The notes beneath the pieces were generated by a model that had not been told where the DNA came from, did not search any database, and saw nothing but the letters and a program-made list of their open reading frames with translations. The position numbers were made by a program, and so were the translations under genes. A DNA stretch of 28,452 nucleotides from a virus (Duplodnaviria; Caudoviricetes): positions 1 through 28,452 of the IMG/VR virus record IMGVR_UViG_3300036985_000288, one strand, 5' to 3'. Shown piece by piece: positions 4,504 through 6,896 of the stretch. The number at the start of each line of letters is the position of its first letter. Position 1 is the stretch's first letter.

Positions 4504-4665
4504 ATGAAATCAAAACGAACAATCAAACAACCAGGGCAACAAACCAATATCATCAAACCACAATTTGCGCATGGAATCACACACGCGGATCGCAAAAAAT
4601 GGTGGAACAATTACGATGCATTATTGGTGAATAGAATCAGCGAAATAAAAAAGGCAACATCATGA
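4504..4665 (+). CDS. 53-aa basic hypothetical protein (not in ORF track)
   Basis: Manual translation MKSKRTIKQPGQQTNIIKPQ...RISEIKKATS. Fills the gap exactly, with an ATGA overlap to the next gene. Confidence 0.55.
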   Translation: MKSKRTIKQPGQQTNIIKPQFAHGITHADRKKWWNNYDALLVNRISEIKKATS

Positions 4666-5042
4666 TGACACCAGAATCAAACAATTTCATGTCAAATGTT
4701 TATGACATCATCGAAAAATACAAATTGACACGGCGCGACCGCCATCAAGCAATTATTTACAAACGATATTATTTGTATCATCAATTGCACATGGCGAAAT
4801 TATCATTGTCACATATTGGATTGTTGTTCAACAAAGACCATGCAACGGTTATTCACGGGATAAAAATGCATAAGCAATTCACGAAATCAAAGGATGCGAT
4901 TTATTTGCATCATGTTCAACCCGTGATTGATGACCTGGATCACAAACCACAACCACGATTTTTGATTGATGACATCATGAATTGCGAATCGATGGATGAA
5001 TTGTTGATAATAAAAACCAACATAAAAAGGAATATTTATTAA
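4662..5042 (+). CDS. DnaA C-terminal (domain IV)-like HTH DNA-binding protein
   Basis: LSLSHIGLLFNKDHATVIHG resembles the DnaA domain IV signature (SLxxIG..F.RDHTTVxH). Confidence 0.75.
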   Translation: MMTPESNNFMSNVYDIIEKYKLTRRDRHQAIIYKRYYLYHQLHMAKLSLSHIGLLFNKDHATVIHGIKMHKQFTKSKDAIYLHHVQPVIDDLDHKPQPRFLIDDIMNCESMDELLIIKTNIKRNIY

Positions 5043-5049
5043 ATTAGCG

Positions 5050-5141
5050 GTGTTCGGTCTCACAATATGAACACATGGCATTATTGCCCCTTTATTTGAA
5101 TTGCAACGTGAGACCTGCAATGATAATGAAGGGGTTTTTTT
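5050..5141 (+). ncRNA. Candidate cis-regulatory RNA: two hairpins with complementary loops plus terminator U-tract
   Basis: Stem 1 GTGTTC/GAACAC with loop GGTCTCAC; stem 2 with loop GTGAGACC; T7 at 5135-5141. Confidence 0.6.
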
Positions 5142-5160: not shown

Positions 5161-5913
5161 ATGGCAACCAATAAAAAATCATTTTTGCTTTATGTGGATT
5201 TGATTCACACAATCGAAAAATTGCCCGATGAATACGCGGGGAAATTATTTAAACACCTTTTGGAATACGTCAACGACCGCGATCCGGTCACGGATGACAT
5301 CGTTGTCAACATTGCATTTGAACCAATCAAACAATCATTGAAAAGGGATTTGGTGCGATGGGATGAAACCAGAGAAAAGCGAAGCAAGGCGGGAAAAATG
5401 AGCGCGGAAAAACGCAACAAAAGTGAACACATGTCAACACATGTTGAAAATATTGAACACATGTTAACACATGTTGATTTTGTTGAACACAATTCAACAC
5501 AAGTCAACACACGTCAACACACGTCAACAAATCCAACTGATAATGTAAATGTTAATGTAAGTGTAATAAATAATAATATAGATGATGTCGATGTCAAGAC
5601 AATCGACCATATCGATTTTGATTCTTTATTGAAATTGATAAACGACACATTCAAACGAAATTTCCGCACAATCAATTCAAAGAACCGAACCGCGTTCATG
5701 GCGCGATTGAAACAAGGATATCGAAAGGATGACATTGCGACCGCCATCACCAATTGCAAATCGAACGAATATCATGTGAACACGGCATATCGATATTGCA
5801 CACCCGAATTCTTTTCACGGGCGGATGTGTTGGATAAATATTCAGCGGTGACGGTTCCCGACAAAAACACGAACAAACCAAATGCTAAAAATGTCCCATG
5901 TTGGAATCGTTAA
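5161..5913 (+). CDS. Phage replication initiator / replisome organizer (DUF6291-like N-terminus)
   Basis: MATNKKSFLLYVD...AGKLFK N-terminus, central low-complexity iteron region, C-terminal domain with YCTPEFF; directly upstream of the helicase. Confidence 0.75.
   Translation: MATNKKSFLLYVDLIHTIEKLPDEYAGKLFKHLLEYVNDRDPVTDDIVVNIAFEPIKQSLKRDLVRWDETREKRSKAGKMSAEKRNKSEHMSTHVENIEHMLTHVDFVEHNSTQVNTRQHTSTNPTDNVNVNVSVINNNIDDVDVKTIDHIDFDSLLKLINDTFKRNFRTINSKNRTAFMARLKQGYRKDDIATAITNCKSNEYHVNTAYRYCTPEFFSRADVLDKYSAVTVPDKNTNKPNAKNVPCWNR
5424..5580. repeat. Putative replication origin: 10-bp-period AACAC iterons plus AT-rich tract inside the initiator gene
   Basis: AACAC at 5426, 5436, 5456, 5466, 5486, 5496, 5506 and 5516; AT-rich 5541-5580. 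Same layout as lambda ori inside gene O. Confidence 0.7.
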
Positions 5914-6896
5914 AAGGGTTCAAAGTTACATCCGCATCGGATGTGTTGAACAAATTGCAATCGTATCGAACAACGTATCATGACAAAGGGAAATATTTGG
6001 GATTTCCTTCCATTAACAACCATTATTCGATGCAATTGGGGAACGTCACGGATTGGACGGGATATCCAATATCGGGAAAAACACAATTTTTGATGGAAAT
6101 GTTGATGAACACATCGGTGATGTACGGATGGCGGCATTTGATATATTTTCCCGATGTTGGTTCAAATGTGGAAATCATTGCGGATTTGATTCACAAAAAA
6201 ACGGGCAAATCATTTGATCCAGGTTCACCGAACCATATCAGCGAAAAGGAAATATTTTCCACATTGGATTGGATTACGCACCATTTTTTGGTATTGACCA
6301 AACATGATGTAAAAGCAAAAATGACACCCATGGATTTTTGGGACATGGCGGTCAAAATCAAAAACGATTCTGGATTGGAAACCGCATCCATTGATTCATG
6401 GAAGGATTTGAATCATCCGTATAATGAACATGGGGGATATGCACAATATTTGGAAATGGTGTTGCCGTATCGAAATGCCATTGCGGAAAATAACGACCTA
6501 CATTTGCACACCATCATTCACCCGAAATTGACCGAAAAGGAAAATGGCAAAAGGAAACCGCCCGTTCCGTATGATTTGAAAGGGGGTTCGGAATGGTTCA
6601 ATTCTGGAAAATGTATGATTACAATTGACCGCCCCGATTTCGAAACCAATGAGGTTGATATTTATTTCAACAAAATCAAACCGCGTTCCATCGGAAACAT
6701 CGGTCAAATTACGATGCGATACGATGTTGATGCGGGACGATATTACGAATCAAACGACATCCATGGAATTGAACATCGTCATTATGCGGGTGAACAAACC
6801 GAACCAACAACAACAATCAATTTGTATGGTGGCAATTCATGGAAGGGAAAAACGGATGATGATGAATTCACACCAATCAATGACGTACCATTTTAA
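5898..6896 (+). CDS. SF4 (DnaB/T7 gp4/Twinkle-like) replicative helicase, no primase domain
   Basis: Walker A GYPISGKT, Walker B-like ASIDSW, IIHP.K and YDLKGGSEW motifs; acidic C-tail ending DVPF. Confidence 0.8.
   Translation: MLESLKGFKVTSASDVLNKLQSYRTTYHDKGKYLGFPSINNHYSMQLGNVTDWTGYPISGKTQFLMEMLMNTSVMYGWRHLIYFPDVGSNVEIIADLIHKKTGKSFDPGSPNHISEKEIFSTLDWITHHFLVLTKHDVKAKMTPMDFWDMAVKIKNDSGLETASIDSWKDLNHPYNEHGGYAQYLEMVLPYRNAIAENNDLHLHTIIHPKLTEKENGKRKPPVPYDLKGGSEWFNSGKCMITIDRPDFETNEVDIYFNKIKPRSIGNIGQITMRYDVDAGRYYESNDIHGIEHRHYAGEQTEPTTTINLYGGNSWKGKTDDDEFTPINDVPF

Follow-up and report, generated by a model that had tools for sequence, protein, structure and literature searches.

In guanidine-IV RNAs, a kiss between the 5' hairpin and the loop of the terminator opposes termination, as described in the accessible parts of PMC11611296 and PMC7736828. 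In satellite phage P4, immunity involves the CI RNA and the seqA and seqC segments of a leader that lies before the replication genes, carries self-complementary segments and undergoes premature termination, according to the available portions of PMC4825925. Rep control in IncI, IncB and IncK plasmids begins with long-range pairing initiated by a loop before the replication initiator; in the accessible text of PMC10724649 the pseudoknot controls translation and needs an opposing countertranscript (Inc RNA/RNAI), and few-base differences in loop and upper stem, a feature shared with the element described here, define compatibility groups. The cATT zipper attenuator of pLS20, as presented in the available parts of PMC13401043, is ligand-free, lies in a mobile-element leader and has an upstream hairpin complementary to the terminator.

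In this study, we analysed a window of 28,452 bases (the whole stretch of DNA under study), a complete phage record with direct terminal repeats, and identified at 5050–5141 on its + strand a real, uncatalogued structured leader RNA that resembles each of these systems in part. Guanidine-IV/Gd4v and the phage element have in common two hairpins, a loop-loop pseudoknot, a 3' hairpin that is an intrinsic terminator (a predicted one in the phage) and a similar size; in both, the kiss does not overlap the terminator stem, and by analogy it would oppose termination in the phage as well. However, the pseudoknot letters of guanidine-IV are highly conserved in the accessible part of PMC9788692, whereas six of the eight kissing pairs vary in the phage family and 27 codes occur. 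No sugE-type or related guanidine gene was seen among the Pfam matches of 68 downstream proteins (68 of the 119 deduplicated), and membership in guanidine-IV/Gd4v was rejected because of the variable pseudoknot letters and the phage replication genes downstream.

Compared with the P4 leader in the portions of its source available, the element differs in placing one 8-bp loop-loop helix on the terminator itself and in that none of its 24 carrier genomes has a tyrosine integrase or resolvase. For the P4 CI and phage P1/P7 C4 immunity RNAs, Rfam gave no gathering-level match on the element, whether in the window or across 20 related loci. As for the target sites flanking an antisense segment, a hallmark of P4 and C4, hexamers of the two kissing strands K1 and K2 occur once each in the window, and a third site is present in 3 of 143 family copies. 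The first-pass annotation had suggested an analogy to IncI/IncB rep control, which holds only in part: the loop pairing ahead of an initiator is shared, but loop 2 here caps a terminator and reverse −7 promoter boxes within 150 nt downstream (this box type being the one covered) are not enriched, with 14 of 141 versus 91 of 500 background windows. The Rfam PK-repZ model scored 12.3 bits on the element against a gathering threshold of 44. As neither an antisense promoter of this type nor an integrase was found, the element does not appear to be of the IncI or P4 type as such, although it is similar to both in purpose. The pLS20 attenuator, in the same portions of its source, pairs with the terminator stem within a 456-nt leader, whereas here only loops pair, within about 90 nt.

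The element and its surroundings in the window

The window encodes terminase, portal, protease and capsid proteins together with a replication and recombination block. Relatives of its putative initiator, found in 127 phage records, belong nearly all to phages of Flavobacterium, Riemerella, Cellulophaga and Olleya, thus the host of the window phage is likely a member of Bacteroidota. As proposed before, the element lies between a DnaA-like reading frame and the initiator ATG at 5161. The upstream frame (4662–5042, + strand) carries a DnaA C-terminal-type helix-turn-helix, although its Bac_DnaA_C match (E 3.3e-7, 30.7 bits) falls under the Pfam curated cut-off of 31.5 bits, and its TAA stop is situated within a promoter-like box. 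The downstream frame (5161–5913, + strand) is likely a replication initiator, with a DUF6291 match in Pfam, a weak Phg_2220_C match and weak PHROGs matches to 'replication initiation protein', and its end is overlapped by a helicase-like gene on the same strand (5898–6896; PHROG primase/helicase, E 4e-13). Inside the initiator frame, iteron-like repeats of about 10 bp are arrayed at 5424–5532, which is a likely replication origin. Three copies of the 10-mer TGAACACATG lie in the genome, one at 5068–5077 in the 3' arm of hairpin 1 and two, at 5424–5433 and 5454–5463, in the array; the 10-mer may be an initiator-binding site in the window lineage.

RNAfold predicted both hairpins of the element (−32.6 kcal/mol, z −2.36, with 2 of 200 shuffles equally good), and the positions earlier assigned to the hairpins, the loops, the T7 run and the ATG all match the sequence. 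Hairpin P1 (5050–5074), which is also supported by covariation, has the arms GTGTTC (5050–5055) and GAACAC (5069–5074) and presents in loop 1 the kissing strand K1, GGTCTCAC (5056–5063), followed by an A-rich linker of 5 nt. After an inter-hairpin linker of 12 nt (5075–5086) comes hairpin P2 (5087–5134), composed of a terminator-type lower stem (CCCCTTTATT, 5087–5096; AATGAAGGGG, 5125–5134), a 3x3 internal loop (UGA/GAU), an upper stem (ATTGCA, 5100–5105; TGCAAT, 5116–5121) and loop 2, in which K2, GTGAGACC (5108–5115), is the exact reverse complement of K1 over 8 nt, as had been claimed. The internal loop would hold non-canonical pairs, probably tandem G-A; a K-turn was considered and dropped, the loop being symmetric and without a bulge. 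With a stem base of CCCC/GGGG and then the U7 tract (5135–5141), P2 combines the G+C-rich stem and U-run of a predicted intrinsic terminator, and the T-run is conserved in the family alignment. A simple terminator scan missed P2, as its rules bar interrupted stems and permit only loops of 3–8 nt.

A small hairpin (GGCA/TGCC, 5077–5088, −5.2 kcal/mol) may form in the linker and overlaps the terminator base. The relatives L126 and L177 carry GGAA/TTCC, a lineage-specific compensatory variant of it, and a family-wide mini anti-terminator in the linker was rejected, as only 7 of 96 copies beat their own shuffles.

A likely Bacteroidota −7 promoter box, TAAATTAG, is located at 5040–5047, one mismatch away from TAnnTTTG. 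That consensus is found 8–14 nt before loop 1 in 131 of 143 copies, and the variant of the window in only 2, thus the promoter of the window is less certain and its copy may be reached by read-through. Bacteroidota −7 boxes sit at −12 to −5 in the accessible part of PMC9723704, and from this spacing the RNA is predicted to start near 5052, at the foot of hairpin 1.

The loop-loop complementarity in the window is not due to chance: none of 1000 dinucleotide shuffles of the spacer reached an 8-nt loop-loop complement, and among 709 sliding windows of the genome the single match is the element itself. GGTCTC and GAGACC occur once each in a genome that is poor in the steps AG and CT (observed/expected ratios of 0.28 and 0.15), has 5 occurrences of CTC and lacks CTAG. 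The avoidance extends across the whole window and was also noted in the relatives L001 and L002, and no literature on this depletion was found. Outside the kiss, the window copy has 2 AG/CT steps, where 95 copies from loci without depletion average 8.3 (minimum 4); inside the kiss it has 2, one per kissing strand, versus a mean of 2.5. The earlier suggestion that the loops keep, under selection, steps which the genome avoids thus holds. The terminator hairpin of the window is nearly identical to those of L495, L496 and L499–L502, which have no AG/CT avoidance and different downstream genes; this suggests that the leader was transferred between lineages and purged of AG/CT afterwards.

A leader family with variable loop codes

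The window element is a member of a family of leaders of about 95 nt in aquatic phages, in which a structural filter over all loci collected retained 143 distinct copies; a promoter box is present in 134 of them, and these show 27 loop-1 codes. An IMG/VR scan for both 8-mers, which fixes the code, found 120 loci, the span being 60–62 nt in 82 of 121 matches, and two later scans left the loop letters free. When the scan was anchored on the loop-2 flanks in P2, a perfect upstream partner was present in 60 of 81 distinct hits, a count in which about ten evident chance hits are kept, and a 7/8 match in 10 more; 16 different perfect codes were recovered with the partner at a near-fixed distance, and the frequency of perfect matches was 0.0 in a swap control giving each locus the code of another. 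When it was anchored on P1, 32 of 111 distinct hits were perfect, with 13 codes, and perfect partners were seen in 32 of the 34 hits with a promoter box and G-run/T-run versus none of the 77 others.

Covariation on 57 diverse copies showed both-side changes in 22 of 25 pairs, and 91% of the alignment cells were paired versus 33–45% with the partners slid. Compensatory changes occur in all 5 counted pairs of P1 (82% of cells paired), in 4 of 4 pairs of the upper stem and 7 of 8 of the lower stem of P2. The 99% pairing of the kiss in the alignment is circular, as members were chosen at 7/8 or better, a circularity from which the loop-free scans are exempt. In the nearest relative, a kissing G-C pair has become C-G and the upper stem has been rebuilt, and 1 of the 63 other element sites differs. 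Covarying loop complementarity in homologues, the test that the first-pass annotation had named, is therefore strongly supported by the loop-free scans, the alignment and the nearest relative.

The geometry is also constrained. K1 and K2 are 52–55 nt apart in 133 of 143 copies and the inter-hairpin linker measures 9–16 nt (mode 13). Loop 1 pairs via its 5' side, a 6-nt A-rich linker then following in 125 of 143 copies, and loop 2 via its 3' side with a 2-nt linker before, an arrangement in keeping with the way pseudoknots usually cross the minor and major grooves. As its flanking bases are mostly unable to pair, the kissing helix ends after 8 bp. Folding favours the + strand in 111 of 143 copies, and G-U pairs work on that strand only. 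A covariance model found one copy in the window and no second, and on 24 whole viral records it matched 23, with a single copy in 22, the miss being a chance pattern hit. The two-hairpin structure, its covariation, its strand and its position at the head of replication operons are observed features of the element.

It might be argued that the K1/K2 repeat, inverted at fixed spacing, acts in DNA as an operator or cruciform, and in the window lineage the 10-mer of P1 is indeed the iteron-like repeat of the initiator. We consider this very improbable in view of the 27 codes, the G-U pairs that function on the + strand only, and the fixed U-run and orientation to the promoter box; furthermore, the iteron match does not extend across the family (3 of 34 versus 3.6% in swaps), and an iteron in the leader as a family character was rejected on these figures.

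One end of the kiss is constant. Loop 1 ends in AC in all 32 P1-anchored members, although the search pattern left these positions free, and K2 starts with GT in the P2-anchored members, hence an invariant AC/GU end in both loop-free scans; the internal loop of P2 is likewise conserved in the family alignment. Such conservation would suit an orphan riboswitch or protein switch, in which a small molecule, an ion or a phage protein binds at the AC/GU end or the internal loop and stabilises the kiss, and which, like the trans-acting RNA considered below, would supply a trigger for an attenuator. This reading seems quite unlikely to us: six of eight kissing pairs vary, unlike the highly conserved pseudoknot of guanidine-IV in the accessible part of PMC9788692, looser versions in other phages are devoid of the AC/GU end, and the downstream genes have no metabolic theme.

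These looser versions, with other codes, are visible upstream of DUF6291 homologues, and in L003, L060, L068 and L492 an AGUA/GAA motif, which resembles the bulged-G (loop E) motif, replaces the internal loop. The loop-1 code is repeated touching the ATG in L058, L077 and L288 (3 of 143 copies) and, by eye, in the looser L003, L060 and L068.

Among cultured phages, Flavobacterium phage FL-1 (KY421186.2, 18932–19029) carries an unannotated member scoring 57.9 bits, and weaker look-alikes (21–29 bits) were seen in Cellulophaga phi13:2 and phi19:3, Muminvirus tooticki6-1 and Olleya Harreka_1. Muminvirus tooticki6-1 has two look-alike leaders with different codes (L493:1106-1196 and L493:2149-2244), one preceding a NUMOD4 endonuclease and the other, whose polarity is reversed (GTGAGACG then CGTCTCAC), preceding the initiator operon. 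By eye, a further unannotated region of FL-1 (L490:3190-3360) shows tRNA-like ends and contains a long insert. A GTDB pattern scan gave 46 hits with 1 true member; its contig, a small one in a MAG titled Ca. Fonsibacter, is suspected to be a mis-binned phage piece. No match to the family model was found in 151 genomes sampled from the order to which a Winogradskyella MAG belongs (with 27 candidates scored for each genome listed), and scanning metagenomes for the P1 of the window yielded 0 hits. A blastn search with the element gave no match among 50,697 phage records. The single sequencing run compared, probably of DNA, had no coverage over the element, a result that does not bear on expression.

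That the element has no family name, as the first reading of the letters supposed, was corroborated by Rfam, which gave no gathering-level match in the window, chance-level matches only on the element and the FL-1 copy, and on the 20 related loci two DUF805b matches only, elsewhere in the loci (L042:1984-2016 and L020:2223-2255). The match in L042 lies directly 3' of the leader copy (1885–1982). No description of the RNA was found in the open-licence literature; the 8-mers tried were absent from the four supplementary files checked of PMC10690425, a catalogue of unnamed viral RNA candidates, among which, in its remaining parts, the element may nevertheless be included.

Order of folding and a putative attenuator

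The family element mostly heads replication-initiator operons. By N-terminal signatures of our own choice, the first downstream ORF is initiator-like in 57 of 143 copies; among 85 others, 57 have enough sequence, and of these 36 have an initiator-like gene within 1.5 kb and 21 have none, the latter including HNH nucleases, methylases and a helicase. Pfam and PHROGs confirmed DUF6291, Lin1244_N, HTH_36 and DnaD-like/replisome domains for some of the initiators, others being unnamed. With a promoter box before it and initiator genes after it, the element is placed in a way consistent with an attenuator.

The predicted energies in the window are −12.6 kcal/mol for the kissing duplex, −3.1 for the upper stem and −21.0 for the whole terminator hairpin. 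In stepwise nested folding, all 143 of 143 copies have the kiss in their optimum. No nested pairing is more stable from the emergence of loop 2 up to the final base or two of the terminator stem; the kiss is last optimal 14–17 nt past K2 in 127 of 143 copies, where the stem ends at 16–19 nt. The kiss can thus form first, about 15 nt before the terminator is complete, as it stays optimal until just before the G-run of the stem is finished; once transcribed, the full terminator is optimal. These folding models describe equilibrium and nested pairing, polymerase, kinetics and pseudoknot energies lying outside them.

On these models and by analogy, we propose that the element is probably a transcription attenuator with guanidine-IV topology, in which the kiss precedes zipping of the terminator and favours read-through. 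While the RNA is still being made, loop 2 would be caught by loop 1, which would hinder zipping. In the kissed state the 5' arm of the terminator would be closed into a ring, so the 3' arm, of about 19 nt and held by the polymerase, would struggle to wind 1.7 turns round it, and read-through would then extend into the initiator and helicase genes. If loop 1 were blocked, or the terminator won the race, an RNA of about 90 nt would be released. We infer the anti-terminating sign from guanidine-IV, where a kiss of the same topology prevents assembly of the terminator.

Rough lengths (a 13-nt linker and a 19-nt stem) indicate that a released RNA could hold both the kiss and the complete terminator, thus the kiss may stabilise the short RNA rather than anti-terminate. 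Accordingly, P2 might be a constitutively leaky terminator and the kiss a post-termination feature which protects or shapes the product of about 90 nt, a functional molecule or a dose limiter without any switch. The optimum of the full terminator after transcription, the estimated compatibility of linker and stem lengths with both helices and the mixed gene context would all suit this possibility, which we nonetheless consider unlikely, given that the kiss is formable before the terminator can finish, that the identical topology switches termination in guanidine-IV (accessible parts of PMC7736828 and PMC11611296), and that the invariant AC/GU end and the fixed spacing suggest a tuned tertiary fold.

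Code turnover and a possible trigger

For the attenuator that we favour, a trigger could be the leader itself. Existing leader RNAs of the phage might kiss nascent loop 1 in trans, which would prevent the internal kiss and make termination more frequent, so that the 8-letter code would mediate copy-number feedback or the exclusion of same-code phages; we regard this extension of the attenuator as a tentative and rather unlikely possibility. Of 35 pairs whose downstream gene starts are at least 85% identical, 17 have different codes; more than one code is present in 8 of 14 clusters, and the sole genome with two copies has two codes. Between the window and L001/L002, changes affect 11 of 30 sites in the kiss and upper stem, with pairing kept, and the flanks on either side are 87% and 95% identical; the flanking genes of the nearest relative differ by 13% and 7%. 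In P4, a leader-derived RNA governs the replication genes, according to the available part of PMC4825925. However, the upstream flank is less than 75% alike in 11 of 13 measurable code-switched pairs, thus ordinary module shuffling can explain much of the code switching. In addition, 24 of 24 carrier genomes lack a tyrosine integrase or resolvase, so nothing points to lysogenic immunity, 32 of the 81 hits in the unbiased scan fall into two codes, and a released leader could mask its own loops. As the reverse −7 box is not enriched and the code occurs nowhere else in the window, a trans-acting RNA would have to be the leader itself.

In its fullest form, which we offer as a doubtful speculation, the element would be an RNA 'postcode', a ligand-free topological anti-terminator jammed in trans by its own leader RNAs and addressed by a fast-changing 8-letter code. 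If so, non-integrating Bacteroidota phages would count their own genomes and throttle same-code competitors, with neither an antisense gene nor a repressor protein needed.

If the attenuator itself holds, a common, uncatalogued regulatory RNA would head the replication operons of aquatic Bacteroidota phages, in which gene control is barely studied, and the anti-termination design of guanidine-IV would also exist with freely changeable pairing letters. The natural compensatory alleles make the steric or topological mechanism directly testable and are potentially orthogonal switches for Bacteroidota, and the copy in FL-1 would provide a bench system in a cultured phage.
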